A stretch of DNA of 37,631 nucleotides from Patescibacteria group bacterium (GCA_038065515.1 JBBTQV010000017.1:1-37631); one strand, 5' to 3'; shown: positions 1 to 37,631, counted from the first letter of the stretch. Notes: generated by a model not told the origin, from the sequence alone. A program made the numbers and translations.

Positions 1-138
1 TCAGTCCGTTTCTTGTTCAAAATAGGTTCGAGCAAAGCAGAGTAATACAGCACAACTTCAGAAAATCGGCATTGACAATGTATTCATTATACTATATAAG
101 GGTGCTAAGCTGTTTTCCAACCAACAAGGAGTAAAGAG

Positions 139-26267: not shown

Positions 26268-26356
26268 GATTCCTGCCCAAAGCATGCTTGAGTGTGATGT
26301 GAGGCGCTGTATACTGGCGACACAGCGGAGAGCCGGAGGTGCCCGCAAACACAATC

Positions 26357-27739
26357 ATGTCATCCGTAACCCACGAAGATATTTGGAAAGCGGTGCTCGG
26401 AGAAATGGAGCTTTCAGTTTCCCGTGCGCATTTCTCAACGTGGTTTAAGAATACCACCGTCATCGCGCGCGATCAGAACTCAATGACCGTCAGTGTGCCG
26501 AACGGTTTTGTGAAAGAGTGGCTTGAAAATAAATTCAACCGCCAAATTCTCACCTCTATCCACAAACTTTCCAATGAAATCCGCGAGGTGAAGTATGTTA
26601 TCGGCCTGCCGAAACCCGAACCATTGCGGCAGGACATCTCAAAAATTATTATTGAAAAAGAATTCCAAGAGCAGACCACCGCTGATCAGAGCCAAGAAAT
26701 CGATAAAATCACTCACCTGAACAAAAAGTATTCGTTCGATTCGTTCATCGTCGGCTCTTCCAATGAATTCACTTTCGCTTGCTCACAGGCGGTTGCCGCA
26801 AGCCCCGGCAAGCACTACAATCCGCTCTTTCTCTATGGCGGTGTCGGTCTGGGGAAAACCCATCTCATCCAATCAATAGGAAATCAGGTGCTCCGCGATT
26901 GGCCCGACAAGAAGGTTCTGTATACCACGGGCGAGAAGCTCACCGCCACCATCGTCGAGTCGATCCGTAACCGCACCATTGAAGATATTAAAACACTCTA
27001 CTCGCGCCTTGATCTCCTTATCATCGATGATATTCAGTATATCGCGGGAAAAGATAAGACACAGGAAATCGTGTTCACTATTTTCAATGAGCTTCACAAC
27101 CGCAACAAACAGGTTGTCTGCACATCGGACCGTCCTCCCAAAGCGATTCCCGCTATCGAGGAGCGCCTCCAGTCACGGCTCGAAGGGGGAATGCTTGCGG
27201 AGATCAACATGCCGGACTTTGAAACACGGTTGGCGATTCTCAAATCAAAGGCGGTCGAAAAAACAAGTCAGCTAAGCGACGAAGTCCTTTCCTATATTGC
27301 AACCCACATCCAAAAAAATGTCCGTGAGCTCGAAGGGGCGCTCAACCGCGTCGTCGCGCTCTCCCAAATCTACAACCGCATACCAGATCTTAAGGAGGTT
27401 AAAAACATCCTGAATGCCTATCTTGCCATCCCGTACCGCAAAACCTCTCCCCAAGTCATCCTAAAGACCGTGGCGGATTTCTATAGTGTCGCCTCGGCAG
27501 ACCTGACGAAGAGGAGTAGGAAGAAAGAAATCGTAAAACCCCGCCAAGTTGCCATGTATCTCCTGCGTGAAGAGATTAAGCTTTCTTTCCCCGAGATCGG
27601 GCAAAAACTGGGTGGCCGCGACCACTCTACCGTGATTCATGCGTGTGAAAAAATCCGGAGAGAAGAAGGGGTGGATGAGCCGCTGAAGAACGAGTTAGTT
27701 ATGATCCGTCAGCGTATTTACGACTCTTTCGATCGCTGA
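26357..27739 (+). CDS. dnaA: Chromosomal replication initiator
   Basis: [49 protein letters not shown]. Confidence 0.98.
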
Positions 27740-27950
27740 CGAATAAGGTGTGGAGAAGCCTGCGTATAATCCGGGAAAGAAAAATAAGCTCCGAGGTTAT
27801 CAGTGTCGGATCAATAGTTATCCTATGCGCGTCCACAACAACAAAGAGGCACATATCGTATACGGGACATGATAAAAGAGATGATCATCCCCATATCCAC
27901 AAGTGTAGTAGTAAGTAGTAGTATATAAATATCTTATTAATACAGAACAG
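27740..27950. other. Replication origin oriC
   Basis: DnaA-box-like TGTGGAGAA (27749), TGCGTATAA (27761), ATATCCACA (27893), then TAG-type trios and AT-rich DUE, between dnaA and dnaN. Confidence 0.85.
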
Positions 27951-29042
27951 ATGAAAGCACTGGTACACAAAACACGACTTCAGCGGGCGCTCGGATTTGT
28001 TGACCGGGTCACTTCACGCAACGCAACATTGCCCATCTTGAGTAATATACTCTTGCGCACTGAAAACGGCCGTATCCGTGTGTCTGCGACGAATCTTGAA
28101 GTCGGAGTGAGCTCAGTCATCGGTGCGAAAGTGGATTCTGAAGGTCAGGTTGCCGTGCCCGGCAAGATGCTTGCGGATTTCGTACGGAGTGCGCCCGGGG
28201 AGAATGTTGTCCTTGACCTCAAGCAAAACACACTCTCCGCACAGGCCGGCTCGTACCGGACGACTATTCTGTGTTTCGACGCGGCGGAGTATCCTATCAC
28301 CCCGAAAGTGGAGGGGGGTCACCAGTACAGTGTGCCGGTCGGAATATTGCGCCAACTTATCGGTTCCGTGTCAGACTCTATCGCGTCATCAGATTCCAGG
28401 CCGGAACTTGCAGGAGCATTTCTGCGGTTCGATAACAATGAGATCGTGATGGCCTCAACAGACATCTTCCGCCTCGCAGAGCGCAAAGCAGTGGGACAGT
28501 ATGCGACTTCCAGTTCCGTTATTGTTCCCCGGGGTACCATTTCCGAACTCGGACGCATTCTGGGAGACATCGACGGCGATGTAATGGTGCGCGTTGCGGA
28601 TAACCAGATATCATTCTCCCATGAAGAATTTGAGATTGTATCGAGGCTCATTGACGGCCGTTATCCGGACTACCGGAAGGTAATTCCCGAACGGGCACTT
28701 GCGAAGGTACTGGTGCGCCGCGACGACCTGGAGAACGCAGCAAAAGTTGCAGCACTGTTCTCTTCGAGTATTTCTGATATCAAACTGGAATGCGATGGAC
28801 AGGGTCTGCGCATCAGCGGAAAGAATTCCAGTAAAGGAGAAGCGTTGGCCGGAGTGGAGGCGAACCTCAAGGGAGACCCCTTTGATGTCTCAATGAATTT
28901 TCATTATTTTCTCGACGGGCTCAAGGCGGTCCAAACGGACAAAGTGATCCTAGAGTTTACCGGGAAGGGGAGTCCCTTTGTGATGCGACCAGACACAGAC
29001 GAGCGTGAGTCTGTGTATCTCATTATGCCCCTGCGGAGCTGA
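27951..29042 (+). CDS. dnaN: DNA polymerase III beta clamp
   Basis: PILSNILL, ATNLE, SRPELAG, STD.FRLAE, SRLIDGRYPDY, YLIMPLR. Confidence 0.97.
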   Translation: MKALVHKTRLQRALGFVDRVTSRNATLPILSNILLRTENGRIRVSATNLEVGVSSVIGAKVDSEGQVAVPGKMLADFVRSAPGENVVLDLKQNTLSAQAGSYRTTILCFDAAEYPITPKVEGGHQYSVPVGILRQLIGSVSDSIASSDSRPELAGAFLRFDNNEIVMASTDIFRLAERKAVGQYATSSSVIVPRGTISELGRILGDIDGDVMVRVADNQISFSHEEFEIVSRLIDGRYPDYRKVIPERALAKVLVRRDDLENAAKVAALFSSSISDIKLECDGQGLRISGKNSSKGEALAGVEANLKGDPFDVSMNFHYFLDGLKAVQTDKVILEFTGKGSPFVMRPDTDERESVYLIMPLRS

Positions 29043-29326: not shown

Positions 29327-31453
29327 CTAGAAACCGGAATACGAACGGACAGCCCACTCCCAGTTCGCATAGTGCGGATCAATCTCGGGTGTCGGGGGGA
29401 TTGGTCCAAGCGGATCGTCTTTCGACACGAAATACAGAATCGAATGTGTATCAGGTGTGCCATTGAGCATCGCCTTACTCGTGATAATGGGGTCGGGTTT
29501 AACGAATGTTTCAGCGGGGGAATCCTTGAGAGCTGCGTTTATGAACGCATTCCATAGTGGCCCCGATGCGCTGATACCGGCGCCGGCTGCCGTCATGGAT
29601 TGATTGTGGTTGTTTCCCACCCAGACACCTACCGCAATCGAAGGCGTGTACCCGACAACCCACGCATCCCTATTCTCTTGTGTGGTGCCCGTTTTGGCGG
29701 CCACATCGCGTCCGGGAAGGTAGAGGGAGTTGATGAAGCCGAACGCCGGAGCACGGGCGTTGTTGTCGCTAAGCACATCACTGACCAGGCGGGCGGTTTG
29801 GGGGTCTAAGACACGCTCTGAATCTATGTGCCGTTCTTCCAGCAGTGTTCCGCCGCTGACCTCAATGCGTTGCATGAATCCCCACGGCACACGGACTCCT
29901 TCATTGGCGAACACGCCGTACGCGGAGACAAGATCAATGGGGCGGACTTCTGCGCCGCCGAGCACCAGCGAGAGGCCGAACCGCGAACGATCGCCCAGTG
30001 TAGTGATGCCCATGCGGGTCGCCAGATCGATAACCGAATCAATACCCGCGAGGTAGAGTGTTTTTACCGAGGGGACATTCAGCGACCGCGCAAGTGACTG
30101 TCTCATAGTCACCGGCCCGGAGAATGTGCCGCTGTAATTTCTCGGGTGGTAGCAATCCTGACCGGTGGGATCTTTTGTGCCCGAAGCGTCGGGCGGACAC
30201 AGAGGATTGAATTCTGTTTTCACATCCCACAATACTGTGCTGTCAGGATATCCTTTGGCAAATGCGGCGGCATATGCAAAGGGTTTAAACGCGGAACCAG
30301 GCTGTCGTTGTGCAGTGACCACATTGTAGTTTCCTTCATTGTCGACATTAAAGTAATCAGCAGAACCAACCAACGCGCGCACCTCACCCGTCTTCGGGTC
30401 AATAGCAACCAATGCCGCATTCGTTGCTTTGTACTTTTCGTTGATCTTCGCGTATTTTGCCACCAACTCTTCTGCTTTTTTCTGTAATTCCGCGTCGAGC
30501 GTTGTGATAATCTTGAATCCGCCGCTGGATACGATATCCGCACCGTATTTAGAGGTGACATACTCACGCGCCATGGCAACAAAATGCGGAGCTGAAATTG
30601 AGGCGGATTTCGGTTTAAACTCCAACCGTACCGCCAATGTATCACGGTACTGTTGTTCGTTAATCGAATTCAATTGACGCATGCGGCCAAGGACATAGTC
30701 CTTCCGTGCCAGCAGTTCATCCAGATGTGCTCTGTACGGGGAAAGATACGATGGCCGCTGTACCATCGCGGCGAGCGCGGCGGCTTGTGCCAGCGAAAGA
30801 TCGGACGCGGGGATGCCGAAGTAAGTCTGACTCGCTGATTCAATGCCGTACGCGTTTGAGCCGTAGGGGACCTGATTCAGATACATCTCAAAAATCTGAT
30901 CCTTCGTGAATCTCCGTTCAACTTCGATCGCCAAAATAAGCTCCTGAACTTTACGCATCATATTCTTCTCGCGTCCCACAAGCGCATTGCCGACGAGCTG
31001 TTGGGTGAGAGTGGACCCTCCTTGTGCCGCACCGCCAATAAGTAAGTCATTATAAACGGAACGAGCGATTCCTTTGAGATCGAATCCCTTGTGTTCATAA
31101 AAACCACTGTCTTCGACGGCCAGAGTGGCTTTCTTAATGGTCTCGTTTATCTTATCCCAAGCGACAACGGTCCGACGCTCTTCATCGTAGATGTCGTACA
31201 ACACCACGGTGCCGGTCCGGTCGTAGATTTTCGTCGACTCTTTCACCTGACGCGAGACAATCGATTCAGGATCGGGGACCTTGCTTTTTGCGTATAAAAT
31301 AAACAGCGAAACACCGATGATGCCGAGTGTTACCACCCATGCCACGAGCACAAGAACATGGGACAACCATGTTCGCCAAGAAGTGCGACCACGGCGGATG
31401 CGCCGCGTCAGCGGTTTTATGCTCGATATACGAAGCCAGGGAGTATAGGGCAT
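29327..31453 (-). CDS. Class A penicillin-binding protein (PBP1A family)
   Basis: EDSGFYEHKG, GGSTLTQQL, RKVQE; SAFK, SLN, KTGT motifs; start at MPYTPW. Confidence 0.95.
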   Translation of the reverse strand: MPYTPWLRISSIKPLTRRIRRGRTSWRTWLSHVLVLVAWVVTLGIIGVSLFILYAKSKVPDPESIVSRQVKESTKIYDRTGTVVLYDIYDEERRTVVAWDKINETIKKATLAVEDSGFYEHKGFDLKGIARSVYNDLLIGGAAQGGSTLTQQLVGNALVGREKNMMRKVQELILAIEVERRFTKDQIFEMYLNQVPYGSNAYGIESASQTYFGIPASDLSLAQAAALAAMVQRPSYLSPYRAHLDELLARKDYVLGRMRQLNSINEQQYRDTLAVRLEFKPKSASISAPHFVAMAREYVTSKYGADIVSSGGFKIITTLDAELQKKAEELVAKYAKINEKYKATNAALVAIDPKTGEVRALVGSADYFNVDNEGNYNVVTAQRQPGSAFKPFAYAAAFAKGYPDSTVLWDVKTEFNPLCPPDASGTKDPTGQDCYHPRNYSGTFSGPVTMRQSLARSLNVPSVKTLYLAGIDSVIDLATRMGITTLGDRSRFGLSLVLGGAEVRPIDLVSAYGVFANEGVRVPWGFMQRIEVSGGTLLEERHIDSERVLDPQTARLVSDVLSDNNARAPAFGFINSLYLPGRDVAAKTGTTQENRDAWVVGYTPSIAVGVWVGNNHNQSMTAAGAGISASGPLWNAFINAALKDSPAETFVKPDPIITSKAMLNGTPDTHSILYFVSKDDPLGPIPPTPEIDPHYANWEWAVRSYSGF

Positions 31454-31518
31454 GCAAGGCGAATATACCACAAAAAATGCGTATTTACAATGATTCCCGA
31501 TGACGGTACAATGATTCA

Positions 31519-32661
31519 ATGACATCAGAAGAACGACAGTCGTATGTGGCTGGTATGCTCCGACGGCGTGTCGAAGCGGTCTACCCGTCCGAGAAAGAAG
31601 TTGCGGTCCGTTTGGCCGGAGCCGAACGGCTGACTATCTATCTTGGTATTGATCCGACCGGGGCGGAGATTCATCTCGGCCACACCATTCCGTTGCTACT
31701 ATTGAAAGAGTTGTTCGCGCTCGGGCATGATGCTGTTTTGCTCATCGGGGATTTTACCGCGCGCATAGGAGATCCGACAGGAAAAGATGCCGCGCGCGTT
31801 GTGCTGACCCCCGAACAGATAGACCAGAACATGGCAACCTACGGAGAGCAGGCAAAAAAGATTATTCCGGAAACGGCGTTCCGTATTGCCTACAACAGTG
31901 AGTGGCTCGGAGCGTTGAATATGGAGCAGATTCTCCGCCTCACGAGTATGGTGACGGTTCAACAAATGCTGCAGCGCGACATGTTTCAAGTCCGCCAGAA
32001 GGAAGGGCGTCCGATATACCTCAACGAATTCTTGTATCCGCTCATGCAGGGATATGATTCGGTTGCATTGCGCACCGATGGTGAGATTGGCGGCAATGAT
32101 CAGACATTCAACATGCTAATGGGGCGCGAGCTGGAGCGCGAATTGTTGGGCAAAGATAAGTTCGTGATTACCACTAAGCTTCTCGTTGATGTCGCTACCG
32201 GCAGAAAAATGAGTAAGTCTGAAGGTGCGCTCATTGCCATCAATGACTCCGCGCAGGAGATTCGTCGGAAGATTCTTGCTGTCGATGACGGTATGATAAA
32301 AACGATTTTTGAATTATGCACGGAAAAGAATCAAGAATGGATCAGCCAGCGACAGGCGATGGTTGATGCAGGGGAGAATCCGAAGCAGTTCAAAGAAGAG
32401 CTTGCCGCAGAACTGATACAGATGTATCACGGCAGTGAAGCGGTGGGTCAAGCAGATCAGGCCATAGAAATACGGCAGACAGGATCGCTGGAACAGGTAC
32501 TCAAAGAGTCCGGCCTCGTTTCTTCCCTCGGAGAGGCAAAGCGGCTGGTCGGACAGGGTGCGGTTCAGGTGAACGGGGAACGGGTCGAGCGGTGGGATAT
32601 CATCATACAAATAGGGGACGAGATACGAGTCGGAAAAGGAAAATTCGTCCGCGTCGTCTGA
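31519..32661 (+). CDS. tyrS: Tyrosine--tRNA ligase
   Basis: GIDPT..EIHLGH, YPLMQGYD, GGNDQ, KMSKS, C-terminal S4 domain. Confidence 0.96.
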   Translation: MTSEERQSYVAGMLRRRVEAVYPSEKEVAVRLAGAERLTIYLGIDPTGAEIHLGHTIPLLLLKELFALGHDAVLLIGDFTARIGDPTGKDAARVVLTPEQIDQNMATYGEQAKKIIPETAFRIAYNSEWLGALNMEQILRLTSMVTVQQMLQRDMFQVRQKEGRPIYLNEFLYPLMQGYDSVALRTDGEIGGNDQTFNMLMGRELERELLGKDKFVITTKLLVDVATGRKMSKSEGALIAINDSAQEIRRKILAVDDGMIKTIFELCTEKNQEWISQRQAMVDAGENPKQFKEELAAELIQMYHGSEAVGQADQAIEIRQTGSLEQVLKESGLVSSLGEAKRLVGQGAVQVNGERVERWDIIIQIGDEIRVGKGKFVRVV

Positions 32662-32664
32662 TAC

Positions 32665-32692
32665 AGAACACCCCGGAAACCCGGGGTGTTCT
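32665..32692. terminator. Bidirectional intrinsic terminator
   Basis: AGAACACCCCGG-AAAC-CCGGGGTGTTCT followed by T run. Confidence 0.8.
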
Positions 32693-32693
32693 T

Positions 32694-32837
32694 TTAGAGG
32701 GGCACATCTTCATCTTCCTCATCTTCTTCCTCTTCCTGCTTCATTTTTTCTTCTTCTTCATCCTCTTCGTCCTTGTCGTCGAATTCTTCTTCAACAGGCT
32801 CTTCCACGGCACTGAATAGATAGGCATCTTCGTTCAT
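32694..32837 (-). CDS. 47-aa hyper-acidic small protein (absent from ORF track)
   Basis: MNEDAYLFSAVEEPVEEEFDDKDEEDEEEEKMKQEEEEDEEDEDVPL; own TTGACA-N16-TACAAT promoter and terminator. Confidence 0.75.
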   Translation of the reverse strand: MNEDAYLFSAVEEPVEEEFDDKDEEDEEEEKMKQEEEEDEEDEDVPL

Positions 32838-32867
32838 GGCGTTATTGTAGGCAGTCGGCTGTTGATG

Positions 32868-33341
32868 TCAATACTTCTGCCGGGCGGTCGAGCAGCACAA
32901 CGCAAGCGCAAGCGCATCAGCGGCGTCGTCAGGGCTGATTTTTTCCTTGATATGCAATAACATCCGCACCATATCCTGCACCTGTGGTTTCTTTGCCTGT
33001 CCGTTTCCACAGACACCACGCTTTACTTGTTGCGGCGTGAATTCGACCACAGGAATCCCGTGTTGCGCCAGCGTGAGCATGATGACTCCGCGCATTTCCG
33101 CGACCGCCATCGCGGTTTTTGCGTTATTCATAAAGAACAGGCGCTCAACACCCGCGGACTGCGGTTTGTATGAAGTGATGAGGTCGGCAAGTGCAATGGC
33201 GGTCGCTTGTTTGTCTGCCACCGAGTCGGTTCCCGGATTACGGAATACGCCCCAGGTCAGAGGCCGTAGCGAACTACCGACGTCTTCGACGATACCATAG
33301 CCGATAATCGTGGTTCCTGGATCAATGCCAAGGTAGCGCAT
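32868..33341 (-). CDS. ruvC: Holliday junction resolvase
   Basis: LGIDPG, ERLFF, GNGQAKK, DDAADALA. Confidence 0.96.
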   Translation of the reverse strand: MRYLGIDPGTTIIGYGIVEDVGSSLRPLTWGVFRNPGTDSVADKQATAIALADLITSYKPQSAGVERLFFMNNAKTAMAVAEMRGVIMLTLAQHGIPVVEFTPQQVKRGVCGNGQAKKPQVQDMVRMLLHIKEKISPDDAADALALALCCSTARQKY

Positions 33342-33350
33342 TCAATGTTG

Positions 33351-33887
33351 TTAGGAGTCTGCGTTGGTGAACACATTTTGCACATCCTCGTGTTCCTCGA
33401 GCGCCTTGATGAGTGTGTCTAGGAGTGAGCGCTCGTTGAGGTCGGTAACCGGAATAATTGTTGTCGGTGTCAGCATTCCCGGCAATCGCACGAACATCCA
33501 GAGCACCGAACCCCGGCCGACCATCCGGCCGCCGAGTTTTACGGCGAGCTGCTTGAGGTCATTGATGGTGCGATTGCTGTTGTCGGTGATGGCGTTGACC
33601 ACGATTGCCGCGCCGCCGGGACCTATGAGCTCGAGTTGCACCTCTATCAGGGCAGAGGCGCTCTTATCCACGACGCGCCTGATTGCCCGTTCGATATTTT
33701 CACTCGGCATGTTCACTTCGCGCGCCCGTTCGATTTCAGCCTTCAACCGGAGATTGGAAGACGGGTCTGGATTATCGCGTGCGGCAATGGAGATTGCGCG
33801 AGCAATCTTTCCGAAGGTGACGCCCTTCTTGGCATCGGCGACACCTTTCTTATGTTTGATTTGGGACCACTTTGAGTGACCAGACAT
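33351..33887 (-). CDS. yebC: YebC/PmpR family protein, short form
   Basis: MSGHSKWSQIKHKK, GPGG, TDNSNRT, EDVQNVFTN; 178 aa. Confidence 0.92.
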   Translation of the reverse strand: MSGHSKWSQIKHKKGVADAKKGVTFGKIARAISIAARDNPDPSSNLRLKAEIERAREVNMPSENIERAIRRVVDKSASALIEVQLELIGPGGAAIVVNAITDNSNRTINDLKQLAVKLGGRMVGRGSVLWMFVRLPGMLTPTTIIPVTDLNERSLLDTLIKALEEHEDVQNVFTNADS

Positions 33888-33914
33888 AACAAACCAAGCA
33901 TAGCCGAGCGGGCA

Positions 33915-34937
33915 TCAGAAATCCAGCTTCAGGGACGCTGGATCGGGCACGCCGACATGGTCACGCCCCGCTTTTGTGATGACGCGCCCCTTGGTGGTGC
34001 GGGCGATGAAGCCCAGGCGCATCAGATACGGCTCGTAGACATCTTCAACGGTACTTTCTTCTTCGGAAATTGACGCGGCAATTGATTTCAAACCGACCGG
34101 ACCACCGCTAAATGTCGTCGCGATGGCGAGTAGTATTTTCCGGTCAGTTTCTTCTAGGCCCTGCGGGTCTACTTCGAGCATCCGAAGCGCTGCCTGCGCG
34201 GTCGGTTCGTCGATGGTCGCGATGTTGTGCACCTGCGCATAATCACGAACGCGCTTGAGAAGCCGGTTGGCAACGCGCGGAGTGGCACGCGCCGAGCGGG
34301 CGATAAGTGTGAGCGCAGGCTTGGTGACCGTGATACCCAACAATCCGGCAGAGCGAGTGATGATGCGCTCGATTTCGTCCGGCGTGTAGTACTCGAGACG
34401 GAAGCTAGAACCGAATCGGGAGCGAAACGGCGCCGAAAGCATCGATATTTTGGTGGTTGCGGCGACCAGCGTGAATCGGGGGAGATCGATTTGGAGTGTC
34501 TTCGCCGCGTTGCCCTTGCCGATGACGATGTCGAGCTTGAAGTTCTCCATTGCCGGATAGATGACTTCTTCAACCATCTTGTTGAGACGGTGAACCTCAT
34601 CGATGAACAGCACATCACCGTCCGACAGCCCCGTGAGAATTGAGCCCACATCGCCGGCTTTCTCCAGAGCTGTTCCGGATGTCATGCGCATGTTAGCGTT
34701 GAGCTCACGGGCGACCAGATAGGCCAGCGTCGTCTTGCCCAGACCCGAAGGACCATGCAGGAGGACATGCTCGGGAGTCTCATTGCGCTTTTTGGCCGCA
34801 CCCAGTACGATACGAAGGTTTTCCTTCGCTTTCTCCTGCCCGACATACTCCGCGAAGCTCTTCGGACGAAGGGTCAGGTCGAGCAATTGGTCGTCAGGAC
34901 CGCTCTGGGGGATAGTTTGGGGGTCCTTGACATTCAT
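33915..34937 (-). CDS. ruvB: Holliday junction branch-migration helicase
   Basis: LRPKSFAEYVGQ, GPSGLGKTTLA, FIDEVHR, YPAMENF, YEPYL; start at MNVKDP. Confidence 0.97.
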   Translation of the reverse strand: MNVKDPQTIPQSGPDDQLLDLTLRPKSFAEYVGQEKAKENLRIVLGAAKKRNETPEHVLLHGPSGLGKTTLAYLVARELNANMRMTSGTALEKAGDVGSILTGLSDGDVLFIDEVHRLNKMVEEVIYPAMENFKLDIVIGKGNAAKTLQIDLPRFTLVAATTKISMLSAPFRSRFGSSFRLEYYTPDEIERIITRSAGLLGITVTKPALTLIARSARATPRVANRLLKRVRDYAQVHNIATIDEPTAQAALRMLEVDPQGLEETDRKILLAIATTFSGGPVGLKSIAASISEEESTVEDVYEPYLMRLGFIARTTKGRVITKAGRDHVGVPDPASLKLDF

Positions 34938-34950
34938 AACAAATACTGTA

Positions 34951-34978
34951 AACTTATAACTAACAACTAACAACTTCA
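34951..34978. repeat. Solo 7-bp tandem array
   Basis: AACTTAT AACTAAC AACTAAC AACTTCA. Confidence 0.7.
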
Positions 34979-34980
34979 GC

Positions 34981-35150
34981 AAGGACCTCTATAATCTGTA
35001 GGCAACTGAACCCAGTGTGCTAAACATGCCGGTTCAGTCGGGATACTCTCTTAGCTCGGAAGATTCGGTTTCGACTGGATCTCTCCTCGGAATTATCCTG
35101 TCCCGTGACCCTATGGTCGTGGATATTGCCTACAGGTTATAAAGGTTCTT
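34981..35150 (-). ncRNA. 6S RNA-like long hairpin
   Basis: ~170 nt with closing stem (AAGAACCTTTATAACCTGTAGGCAA / TTGCCTACAGATTATAGAGGTCCTT) and 3' ACTGAACC...GGTTCAGT hairpin. Confidence 0.65.
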
Positions 35151-35175
35151 CGCTGTCCCAGCGTCCTGTCGAGGA

Positions 35176-36840
35176 TTACCCCAACACCCGGCGGATCTCT
35201 TCTACCGATGTGATGCCCCGGATCAGTTTGAGATAGCCGTCCTGCAGCATGGTGACCATGCCCTCCTTGATAGCCAGGTCGCGGATATCAGTAACGGATG
35301 CATTTTCGAGAATCAACCGCTCCATCGCGCGGGTCACTTCAAATACCTCGTATACTCCGATGCGGCCCTTATAGCCGATGTTATTACACTCACTGCAACC
35401 GCCCGGACCGTACACCGGAAGCGATGCATTGATTTCCGGCAACTCAAATCGCTTACTGATGGAAGCGATGTTTTCTTGCAGTTTTTTCAGGTCTTTTTCT
35501 TCCAGTGGCAACTTTTTTTTGCATGATTCGCACAGCTTGCGCACAAGGCGTTGCCCCATTGCCATTGTCATCGCGGGTGCGACCGTTTCCGGTTTGACGC
35601 CGAGGTCAACGAGACGGGGGATAGTGCCGGCGGCGTCGTTGGTGTGAATGGTTGAGAGTACCATGTGGCCGGTGAGCGCGGCTTCCAGCGCGATGCTGGC
35701 CGTTTCTAGGTCGCGGATTTCACCGATAAGAATAATATCGGGGTCTTGGCGTACGATGGCGCGCAATCCTCCGGCGAATGTGTATCCCTTGGAAGGTTCA
35801 ACCTGCGTCTGATTGACTCCTTTGATATGATATTCGATAGGGTCTTCCACCGTAATGATTTTCATGTCCGGCGTATTCAGGTAGTTCAGGAACGCATACA
35901 GCGTTGTGGTTTTTCCGGAACCGGTGGGGCCAGTCGTCAGCAGGGTGCCCTGCGGGCGACCCAAGAGAGCTTTTACTTGCTCCAATACATCGGTTCGCAT
36001 GCCGAGGTCTTCCAGTTTTGCCCTGATGCCGCGCGGATCCAACAAACGCATAACGATGGATTCGCCGTATTCGCTCGGCAGAACAGAAACACGAACCTCG
36101 ATATCAATATCACTTTGGCGGATAGTGAACCGGCCGTCCTGGGGTGCCTTGGTGATGTTAAGCTTCATTTTCGACAGCACTTTGACGCGGTTGAGCACTC
36201 GCTGATACCGCGCCTTGTCGATAGTGGCGACTTCATGCAGAAGGCCGTCGAGACGGTACCGCAAACGACACAGGTCGGATTCCGGCTCAAAGTGAATGTC
36301 GGATGCGCGGGTCGAGAGCGCGCCCGCGACGAGCATTTCGAACAGCTGGGTTACGGGAATCTGTCCCAGCTGCCCTTTGAGGTCGTTGATGTTTTTAATT
36401 TTTTCCGCAGCCTGTGCTATCACCTTATCGTCCACACTGATAGCGCCCACTTCAAATGTCTCGATGGTTTTGATGGTCGCATAGCGCATCCAGACGGTTT
36501 CCATGGTCGCACGGGCGACCATGAGCACTTTCAGGATTGTGTAATGGGTGCCGAGGTCGTCTAACAGCGTCTTGGCTTCAGGCGTGCGCGGGTCCAGCAC
36601 CGCAACAACGGCTACCGGGCCTTTTGTTTGCACAACGGCAAGACCGGCGGCTCGGGATTGTGCTTCAGGAACGATTTTGAGCGCCTCCGGATCGATGGGG
36701 AGGCCTTGAATATCTACAAACGGCAGGCCAAGCTCCGTGGCGAGCGCTTGCGCGGAAAGCGCTTGTTCTTTTTCTCCGATACTGGACAGCTTCTTTTCCA
36801 GTTCGGCCGCTATATCTGGCTTTGTGGGTGCAGTCACCAT
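35176..36840 (-). CDS. Type IV pilus / T2SS assembly ATPase (PilB/GspE)
   Basis: ASDIHFEP, PQDGRF, GPTGSGKTT, EDPIEY, RQDPD, TGHMVLST.HTN, two CxxC. Confidence 0.95.
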   Translation of the reverse strand: MVTAPTKPDIAAELEKKLSSIGEKEQALSAQALATELGLPFVDIQGLPIDPEALKIVPEAQSRAAGLAVVQTKGPVAVVAVLDPRTPEAKTLLDDLGTHYTILKVLMVARATMETVWMRYATIKTIETFEVGAISVDDKVIAQAAEKIKNINDLKGQLGQIPVTQLFEMLVAGALSTRASDIHFEPESDLCRLRYRLDGLLHEVATIDKARYQRVLNRVKVLSKMKLNITKAPQDGRFTIRQSDIDIEVRVSVLPSEYGESIVMRLLDPRGIRAKLEDLGMRTDVLEQVKALLGRPQGTLLTTGPTGSGKTTTLYAFLNYLNTPDMKIITVEDPIEYHIKGVNQTQVEPSKGYTFAGGLRAIVRQDPDIILIGEIRDLETASIALEAALTGHMVLSTIHTNDAAGTIPRLVDLGVKPETVAPAMTMAMGQRLVRKLCESCKKKLPLEEKDLKKLQENIASISKRFELPEINASLPVYGPGGCSECNNIGYKGRIGVYEVFEVTRAMERLILENASVTDIRDLAIKEGMVTMLQDGYLKLIRGITSVEEIRRVLG

Positions 36841-36939
36841 ACGCAGTCACCATACGCGAGAAGCCCTTTTTGTAAACGATTTTTTGTGGACAACCTCACA
36901 TCAAAACGCCCACGACCCACCGCTCCTCCCACGGGTCCG

Positions 36940-36968
36940 TGGACAACTCCAAGACACCATGCTATACT
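36940..36968 (+). promoter_or_regulatory. Near-consensus sigma-70 promoter with no downstream ORF
   Basis: TGGACA-N17-TATACT with extended -10 TG. Confidence 0.7.
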
Positions 36969-36974
36969 GCCCGC

Positions 36975-37030
36975 ATCACCACGAAGAAGACCCTTGTGAG
37001 GCTCGTCCTTACCGGGGGCTTTTTCATTTT
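36975..37030 (+). ncRNA. Candidate small hairpin RNA convergent on the NYN gene
   Basis: ATCACCAC-GAAGAAGACCCTTGTGAGG-CTCGT-CCTTACCGGGGGCTTTTTC-ATTTT, downstream of the promoter above. Confidence 0.55.
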
Positions 37031-37518
37031 AATTCCAAAATTCCTCGCTGATTGCTTAGGTAGGCAATCCGGGCGTTCGTGCGCTTGAGGAGAATTGAGC
37101 ATTTCCTTTCGATGCTTGGAGAGAGAATACATGAAAGTTGTTTGCGTTCTTGAAGAAATTTCACGAGACCTGCGTAATCCCCGTCGCTTGAGACGATAAC
37201 TGCTTTTTCGAATACACCCCCGTAGGCATCGCGCACCGCCTGTAATACCAAATCCGCGTCGCAGTTTCCCTTTGGCTTTCCGGCGCCATCGTAGACGACC
37301 TCTTTGAAGACAAGCGTAAAGCCTGCTTCTTGGAGATGGGTATACAGGTCTTTATATTTCGCGATGAGACCGATGAAAATATATGCGCGACCAACGCCAT
37401 ATTTTTCGGTAAGCCATATGCGCAACTTTCGGTAATCGAGATCCCATCCCACATCACCCATTGCCTTATGCAAATTTGCCCCGTCAATGAATGCGTAGTT
37501 GTTCGTTGGCTGTTGCAT
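37024..37518 (-). CDS. NYN domain protein (PIN-like RNase, LabA/DUF88)
   Basis: AFIDGANL, KGNCDADL, SSDGDY acidic motifs; start 37518 or 37527. Confidence 0.9.
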   Translation of the reverse strand: MQQPTNNYAFIDGANLHKAMGDVGWDLDYRKLRIWLTEKYGVGRAYIFIGLIAKYKDLYTHLQEAGFTLVFKEVVYDGAGKPKGNCDADLVLQAVRDAYGGVFEKAVIVSSDGDYAGLVKFLQERKQLSCILSPSIERKCSILLKRTNARIAYLSNQRGILELK

Positions 37519-37631
37519 GAGCGCCATCCTCGCATGTTTGGTTAGCACAATCAACGCCCCAACTTTCTTATCCACACCCCATCCTAGCGGGGGGGGGGTG
37601 CTTTCATGGGATACTGGCGAGGTATGGCATT

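Follow-up and report, generated by a model that had tools for sequence, protein, structure and literature searches.

Type III toxin-antitoxin systems (ToxIN, CptIN, TenpIN) have a layout in which a tandem-repeat RNA array lies upstream of the toxin gene, on the same strand, and is processed by the ToxN-type toxin, and antitoxin RNAs of the RatA and SR4 type are at least 100 nt long, form long overlaps and are associated with small-peptide toxins. The par locus of pAD1 combines convergent promoters, an RNA of about 40 nt and a common bidirectional terminator, and pairing starts at complementary stem-loops (PMC7472228). For the yonT/SR6 pair of Bacillus subtilis, SR6 is reported to promote degradation of the toxin mRNA (PMC5848175).

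The Patescibacteria (CPR) constitute a large part of bacterial diversity, and their regulatory RNAs and addiction or defence modules are almost uncharted. Here, we describe a locus from this group in which comparative sequence analysis establishes a small-RNA gene as a strand-specific, structured, independently promoted and near-obligate companion of two subfamilies of NYN genes. On this evidence, the RNA is best read as an antidote or regulator of a NYN toxin, the two forming a toxin-antitoxin-like pair. The window, that is, the whole 37,631-nt stretch of DNA that was analyzed, is contig C17 of a 656-kb genome (G000; 64 contigs, rated 100% complete) of an ultra-small groundwater bacterium of the Patescibacteria group, and the RNA/NYN module sits at its right end, beyond ruvB and a gene for a pilB/gspE-type ATPase (Table 1).

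Table 1. Coordinates of the features discussed in the text, counted from the first nucleotide of the window or, for the three classes of NYN stop codon among homologous loci, in RNA coordinates
Feature	Position	Strand	Remarks
dnaA	26339-27739		about 10 kb from the module
ruvB	33915-34982	-	
pilB/gspE-type ATPase gene	35176-36840	-	PF00437, E 9e-123
DnaA-box-like 9-mer CGTGGACAA	36938..36946	+	two mismatches to TGTGGATAA; overlaps the -35; weak assignment
Small-RNA promoter	36940..36968	+	-35 TGGACA 36940-36945, 17-nt spacer, TG 36960-36961, -10 TATACT 36963-36968
Small RNA, about 55 nt	36975..37030	+	8-nt 5' tail, A-run, hairpin, U-run
Hairpin, 17 pairs	36983..37025	+	strand-biased bidirectional terminator
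NYN (PF01936) gene, predicted ribonuclease, 164 aa	37024..37518	-	ATG at 37518; open frame to 37575
NYN upstream region	37519..37567	-	weak promoter, no Shine-Dalgarno, possibly a leaderless mRNA, as deduced for the window
NYN stop beyond the hairpin	RNA -5..7		20 loci of 114
NYN stop inside the hairpin	RNA 20-38		49 loci of 114
NYN stop at or after the U-run, as in the window	RNA 50-71		45 loci of 114

A first-pass annotation of the window had reported an extended-TG promoter with no ORF behind it, a predicted transcript of about 55 nt forming a 19-position imperfect stem with a CUCGU loop, and a U-run over the NYN stop codon, and each of these observations holds. The promoter is present at the place reported and matches the consensus at 10 of 12 positions in addition to the TG extension, and the only frame behind it, of 49 aa, starts upstream of the promoter. 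With the start of the RNA placed from promoter geometry and its end from the terminator, the 58 nt from 36975 fold into 17 pairs and 2 mismatched positions at -21.4 kcal/mol (z = -3.63; none of 200 shuffles as good). The basal part of the hairpin consists of seven A-U/G-C pairs between the A-run and the U-run, followed by an A.G mismatch, above which lie a CCCU/GGGG lower stem, a U.C mismatch, a 6-bp variable upper stem and the loop; the U-run covers the NYN stop codon at 37024-37026. Shuffles fold as well as the reverse complement does (z = 0.02), several of the hairpin pairs being G.U; the window by itself thus already assigns the hairpin to the plus strand and not to the NYN transcript. The region 36700-37631 contains no tandem repeat except an unrelated 13-nt duplication at the pilB start.

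Among 61 related genomes, NYN proteins with E below 1e-36 were counted as close orthologues; they are encoded in G000 and nine others and in none of 11 same-genus genomes, the nine other loci all show the downstream element by eye, and the flanking genes of the close-NYN loci are unrelated to each other. An alignment of ten NYN proteins (A1) led to at least 576 tblastn-confirmed stretches in a species-level genome collection, the best 80 of which, together with the ten, make up the subfamily-A set of 90 loci. A second NYN subfamily (B; alignment A3), 40-50% identical, gave at least 476 confirmed stretches, of which 80 were kept; the two sets of confirmed stretches may overlap. The relatives and all homologous loci are from Patescibacteria/CPR metagenome-assembled genomes. 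A covariance model (R1) was built from an alignment (A2) of 85 distinct subfamily-A RNA sequences. It matches 89 of the 90 subfamily-A loci, always antisense to NYN and at the NYN 3' end, with 38.5-86.6 bits versus at most 36 bits on the NYN strand at the same places; the sole miss is L039, where the NYN 3' end has diverged. Matches were also obtained in 78 of the 80 subfamily-B loci (77 antisense and one, L249, co-directional), and in the remaining two the hairpins have diverged by eye. Over both subfamilies, three of 170 close-NYN loci (L039, L304 and L313) lack an R1 match, and the orientation is antisense in 166 of the 167 loci that have one.

The hairpin is supported by covariation. In A2, 98.9% of 1445 cells are paired and 11 of the 17 pairs show changes on both sides; none of 500 shuffles reached any of five measures, slid controls were 45-71% paired, and RNAalifold independently gives the identical structure. 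The strand can be read from the wobble pairs: A2 holds 133 G.U cells (A.C if read on the NYN strand) versus 9 A.C cells, and a U.G pair occupies columns 20-41 in 62 of the 85 sequences. The RNA-sense fold is the more stable one in 80/85 A-type and 74/80 B-type sequences, with a mean gain of 4.5-5.4 kcal/mol. The hairpin is thus selected on the strand opposite NYN. The B-type alignment is 89% paired, with double changes at 14 of 17 pairs, figures biased towards the R1 structure to which it was fitted. The two RNA types differ in their lower stems (GACCC/GGGGGC versus GCACYUC/GCGGUGC) and have in common the A-run, the U-run, a C-G/U.G/U.C motif below the variable upper stem, and GGUUYYGUCC, which comprises the loop and the pairs that close it. 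In 85 sequences of type A and 76 distinct ones of type B, conservation reaches 90% or more at the G, U and GU columns of the loop, and the CCC/GGG lower stem is invariant or nearly so.

Several other explanations of this conservation were considered and rejected. Coding is not its cause, the NYN stop falling at three position classes and in all three frames. An integron attC-like site, considered by comparison with attC core motifs, was dismissed, there being no cassette arrays and the promoter being conserved. An A-rich conserved segment of the RNA resembles a 23S segment of G000 (one substitution and one deletion); rRNA mimicry was rejected, as local alignment of the RNA with the partial 23S locus in either sense scored 17 and 18 against shuffle means of 18.7 and 18.8. 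The 23S stretch itself (C7:11684-13435 of G000) is partial; the match of 867 model positions across 1752 nt points to a large insertion or intron.

Promoter-like sites occur in 30000-37631 at about twice the shuffle rate (11 vs 5.2 +/- 2.8), so that a single site is weak evidence when taken alone. In the homologous loci, the best -35/-10 pair within 48 nt upstream of the RNA was scored, with 1548 windows of the same loci as controls. At least 10 of 12 consensus positions are matched in 63 of 84 subfamily-A loci versus 12 control windows (0.8%), in 78 of these 84 loci the end of the -10 precedes the conserved first A by 6-7 nt, and the TG extension is present in 56; in subfamily B, 56 of 75 loci reach 10/12. 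For the RNA promoter, 75% of loci reach this score, versus 5% for the NYN promoter. That the element is a mere intrinsic terminator of NYN beside a promoter-like site due to chance would suit the terminator-like stem-loop and U-run, as well as the excess of promoter-like sites in the window. We nevertheless consider it extremely improbable, given that about 160 loci have kept the hexamers, their spacing, the TG extension and the distance to the conserved first base, that the hairpin is selected on the strand opposite NYN, and that R1 scores 38-87 bits antisense versus at most 36 bits in the sense direction. The central contention of the first-pass annotation, namely, that the RNA is independently promoted, tied to the NYN gene and not a plain terminator, is accordingly upheld by a promoter and a stem conserved antisense at NYN; the comparison of homologues that it had suggested finds promoter, start distance, covarying stem and loop conserved over about 165 loci. 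The Rfam search, likewise suggested there, gave no family match for the RNA: with Rfam 15, only tRNAs reach the gathering score in the window, and 36780-37120 searched at E up to 10 produced two chance-level matches of 13.2 and 11.5 bits.

The 9-mer that overlaps the -35 in the window has better counterparts in relatives, just upstream of the -35. Exact TTATCCACA or its complement TGTGGATAA, a DnaA-box-like 9-mer, occurs at -75..-35 in 20 of 85 subfamily-A loci, with 0.0019 expected per window; if one mismatch is allowed, the number of loci with a box rises to 37 of 85, with 0.015 expected; the corresponding counts for subfamily B are 9/75 and 20/75. The motif is about 100-fold enriched at the RNA promoter and weakly before NYN (3 exact in 65). 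It is present in both orientations and at slightly varying distances, as expected of a protein site, and we infer that DnaA binds it.

The NYN product is predicted, from sequence and a structural model, to be a ribonuclease. It matches PF01936 with 50.3 bits (cut-off 24.2; E 4.6e-13), and the start at 37518 leaves seven residues before the YAFIDG motif, as in most relatives. The acidic motifs, already described as intact from the window, are so: D12, D87, D112 and D114 are invariant in 44 of 44 aligned relatives, and D89 is kept in at least 90%. These residues align to D residues of 2QIP and are presumably catalytic and metal-binding. The AF2 model (pLDDT 92.6) has a PIN-like alpha/beta fold, the top Foldseek matches being 2QIP (VPA0982; E 2.6e-9, TM 0.74) and the NYN domain of MARF1 (TM 0.65), and RNA-bound 8wzc, the KHNYN NYN domain with RNA, is also among the fold matches. 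Upstream of NYN, a 10/12 promoter was found in 3 of 65 relatives; in 27 of 65, the start codon follows the end of a -10 hexamer (at least 5/6) by 3-14 nt and there is no ribosome site, which suggests that the mRNA is leaderless in many loci. PADLOC returned only a weak generic NYN match and NCBIfam and PHROGs none; with the RNA pattern giving 0 matches in viral contigs, a defence or phage link was rejected. In the freely accessible literature, we found neither a PF01936 NYN protein as an established toxin of a toxin-antitoxin system nor a description of an RNA partner of PF01936/LabA-like proteins or of a NYN-linked small RNA. A distant NYN paralogue on contig C28 of G000 has no such RNA, the single R1 match in the 656-kb genome being that at 36975-37033 (+; 74 bits, E 6.8e-15).

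Overlap between the RNA gene and NYN was counted in 159 distinct RNA loci; in 114 of these, the NYN frame is intact and ends at the RNA. The coding overlap ranges from 0 to about 55 nt. In 69 of the 114 loci, the stop codon lies inside or beyond the hairpin, so that the mRNA is necessarily complementary to 15-55 nt of the RNA; the earlier argument that an overlap of only a few nucleotides favours RNA-protein binding over antisense pairing fails in relatives. In A2, the stem is flanked by an A-run and a U-run in most loci and both strands fold, which makes the hairpin a bidirectional terminator common to both genes; in the window, the NYN-sense hairpin is poor and the NYN-sense U-run weak.

We tentatively favour, at somewhat less than an even chance, cis-antisense action at the NYN 3' end as the primary mechanism, as in par RNA I/RNA II, within a toxin-antidote-like pair. 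A weakly promoted, probably leaderless NYN gene would face a strongly promoted gene for the RNA of about 55 nt, with one bidirectional intrinsic terminator common to both. The small RNA, presumably abundant, and the NYN mRNA at its 3' end would carry complementary terminator hairpins with complementary loops, which would kiss and extend to a duplex. Through the duplex, the mRNA may lose the 3' hairpin that protects it (RNase III or 3' exonucleases), or polymerases may collide, and NYN would be kept low; when RNA synthesis falls, NYN would be made and cellular RNA cut, and DnaA, via the box beside the -35, may tune RNA synthesis. RNA expression, NYN toxicity, duplex-mediated decay and the DnaA input are steps that we infer. 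The guaranteed complementarity of mRNA and RNA and the flanking A-run and U-run count for this reading, as do the linkage of the RNA to NYN, selection of the hairpin on the RNA strand and the resemblance to par. Against it count the poor hairpin and weak U-run of the NYN sense in the window and the missing par-type contact at the 5' end: the 5' tail of the RNA is not complementary to the NYN 5' region (RNAduplex, 67 loci; mean z +0.27, 1% below -2), and a second contact of this kind was rejected. So does L249 (1534-1593), the only locus with the RNA gene co-directional to an intact NYN gene, where the promoter adjoins the NYN stop codon and cis-antisense pairing cannot work.

A cis-antisense RNA can do without a conserved sequence, yet conservation of the loop GGUUYYGUCC, of the C-U-U/C-G-G mismatch motif and of the lower stem is seen regardless of reading frame and in both subfamilies, which points to recognition by a protein. 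The RNA could thus act on the NYN protein itself, as a type III-like pseudo-substrate inhibitor or as a cofactor or specificity subunit, with convergence only ensuring co-inheritance, a possibility that we rate as rather unlikely. Besides the frame-independent conservation, which extends to the CCC/GGG lower stem and the U.G plus U.C motif, this explanation would account for the association of each NYN subfamily with its own lower-stem type, both types adjoining in one locus (L045), for the intact NYN in co-directional L249, and for well-kept RNAs that lack a NYN gene; a protein that recognizes the RNA, most simply NYN, explains these features better than antisense pairing does. The fold match to the NYN domain of KHNYN with RNA (8wzc) agrees with it. 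However, the convergent, downstream, repeat-free layout is unlike every known type III system, subfamily-specific stems can be explained by plain co-inheritance, and binding alone does not require the near-fixed antisense orientation (166/167). The antisense and protein-binding mechanisms are not exclusive of each other. A bolder version appears doubtful to us: that the single, non-repetitive hairpin RNA of about 55 nt represents a new class of RNA antitoxin, a pseudo-substrate of NYN through the UUYYGU loop and the C-U-U/C-G-G motif, with a terminator in common with the toxin and a DnaA-wired promoter that would release the nuclease upon a change in replication initiation, widespread and mobile in the reduced genomes of Patescibacteria.

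The distribution of the two genes bears on all of these readings, including the preferred one, cis-antisense action in a toxin-antidote-like pair. Strong R1 matches were found in 11 of the 61 relatives, namely, the ten with close NYN (including G000) and G058, where the match lies 266 nt from the end of a contig; in G043, an additional RNA copy is located beside a 66-aa C-terminal NYN fragment, and weak matches of 42-52 nt (E 7e-5 to 8e-4) were obtained in G028, G030, G014 and G021. With strong matches in 11/61 relatives and in 0/11 same-genus genomes, a housekeeping or integration-site RNA was rejected. A scan that started from the RNA, using its exact conserved core, found more than 120 stretches in the genome collection, of which 80 were fetched; the scan is biased to perfectly kept cores and would miss decayed RNAs. 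Among these 80 loci, 49 have an intact convergent NYN, one of them (L142) in a co-cultured Patescibacterium, and 14 a decayed one (an N- or C-terminal fragment in six, an internal deletion in two, and a frame interrupted by frameshift or stop in six). No remnant of NYN was seen in 15, and the other 2 are truncated by the end of the contig; conversely, NYN without the RNA was observed in one of the 90 subfamily-A loci. Decayed and orphan loci have an RNA promoter of the same strength as intact ones: at least 10/12 is reached in 40/49 intact, 11/14 decayed and 9/14 orphan loci. Of the 15 orphan genomes, whose completeness is not given, five encode an intact close NYN elsewhere, one a broken copy and nine none (E 1e-10, or a distant paralogue only).

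NYN is therefore almost never without the RNA and the RNA is often without NYN, an asymmetry that fits a toxin and its antidote, as do the strong RNA promoter versus the weak NYN promoter, the multi-copy and decayed copies and the neighbourhoods rich in toxin-antitoxin genes. The orphan RNA genes L134, L136, L138, L183 and L122 are convergent with unrelated genes; judging by motifs, neighbours of this kind are Doc/Phd-like, HEPN plus nucleotidyltransferase (MNT) and HicA-like, and a kinase is also among them. Two complete NYN-RNA modules, A-type and B-type, lie in tandem in L045 (483-2047), each with its own RNA type, which counts for a two-part module, and three RNA genes with their own promoters and differing lower stems are in tandem in L109 (1988-2271), two of them without NYN. 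The pair is a compact, patchy and probably mobile two-part module.

Orphan RNA genes with strong promoters and the nine orphan genomes without close NYN argue against antisense action and could be taken to mean that the RNA is autonomous, with a cellular role of its own as a small RNA that acts in trans or responds to DnaA, and that NYN is merely the most frequent user of its bidirectional terminator or a fellow traveller. The intact promoters of orphans beside unrelated convergent genes (Doc/Phd, HEPN+MNT, HicA, kinase), the tandem genes of L109 and the enrichment of the DnaA-box-like motif at the RNA promoter, weak before NYN, would all be in line with such autonomy. We nonetheless hold it to be improbable: among the 61 relatives, the RNA is found only where close NYN is, plus at one contig edge; it is absent from all 11 same-genus genomes and so is not a housekeeping RNA; a mere three of 170 close-NYN loci lack a model match; and no candidate target was found, the 23S rRNA comparison being no better than shuffles.

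In the same-genus genomes, pilB is followed directly by a divergent nusA, with no module, which makes the module accessory here. In three of them (L329, L330 and L333), at about 2540-2620, the nusA promoter is close to consensus and the leader contains a conserved hairpin, GAGGTCCAC...GTGGGCCTC, that could be autoregulatory. A TGTGGACAA box at 36885-36893, upstream of pilB in the window and one mismatch from the complement of the DnaA box, is kept near 2490 in the same three genomes, which lack the NYN module. A perfect 13-nt tandem duplication (2.2 copies) at 36830-36857 spans the pilB start codon and makes a second, out-of-frame ATG; it is absent at the orthologous site of G006. At the other side of the module, the last 64 nt of the window (37568-37631) recur in contigs C16 (1818-1881) and C63 (14-76) of G000; this repeat opens with an exact TTATCCACA and enters the 5' end of a paralogous secreted, collagen-like gene. 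Comparison with four DNA sequencing runs showed the module in a related strain as well, and the repeat is a contig break point in several runs. The DnaA-like boxes were considered as terminal inverted repeats of the module and rejected, the 36885 box being a genus-conserved element upstream of pilB and the 37568 box belonging to the repeated gene 5' end. Farther away, at 26339-29042, dnaA is followed by a 363-aa ORF, probably dnaN, with a few one-mismatch DnaA boxes in between; the likely origin region lies about 10 kb from the module.

The RNA constitutes a small-RNA family with clear covariation, a conserved promoter and no Rfam family, present at hundreds of loci and tied to a single family of enzymes. 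Should the pair prove to be a toxin-antitoxin system, the range of RNA-antitoxin systems would widen to include an enzymatic PIN-like toxin and a further clade at phylum level, and the PF01936/LabA-like proteins, mostly of unknown function, would gain a first regulatory partner. Were the link to the DnaA box real, an RNase switch would be tied to the replication cycle in organisms with very few regulators. The module spans only about 0.7 kb, which makes the hypothesis directly testable in E. coli.

Among known systems, type III, to which the first-pass annotation referred, has a different layout: a repeat array is absent here, the RNA gene does not precede the candidate toxin gene on its strand, and the candidate toxin is not of the ToxN type. 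What the locus has in common with type III systems is an RNase paired with a small cognate RNA, and it would be a functional analogue if the RNA binds NYN; unlike them, it has a single hairpin, convergent and downstream, and a NYN instead of a ToxN/AbiQ fold. The protein itself resembles NYN/LabA-like proteins (PF01936; 2QIP VPA0982; MARF1 NYN) in its Pfam match, fold and invariant acidic residues. As in txpA/RatA, bsrG/SR4 and yonT/SR6 of Bacillus subtilis, a convergent RNA overlaps the 3' end of the putative toxin gene, but the RNA is only about 55 nt here and its partner is a NYN enzyme. An antisense RNA gene with its own promoter that overlaps or abuts a protein gene is also the arrangement by which type I systems are recognized. 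Differences from par (Fst/RNA I-RNA II of the Enterococcus plasmid pAD1) include the toxin, a 33-aa membrane peptide there and, as a putative toxin, a 164-aa soluble NYN enzyme here; the absence of a counterpart to the DRa/DRb direct repeats by which the par RNA masks the ribosome site; an mRNA that is apparently leaderless in many loci; conservation of the RNA loop and stem beyond the needs of pairing; and the host clade, Patescibacteria. Shared with par are the convergent promoters, a very small RNA (about 40 nt in par, about 55 nt here), one bidirectional factor-independent terminator that gives both transcripts complementary terminator stem-loops, and a compact, patchily distributed module. 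By its sequence layout, the architecture is closest to that of the type I par locus, not to type III.
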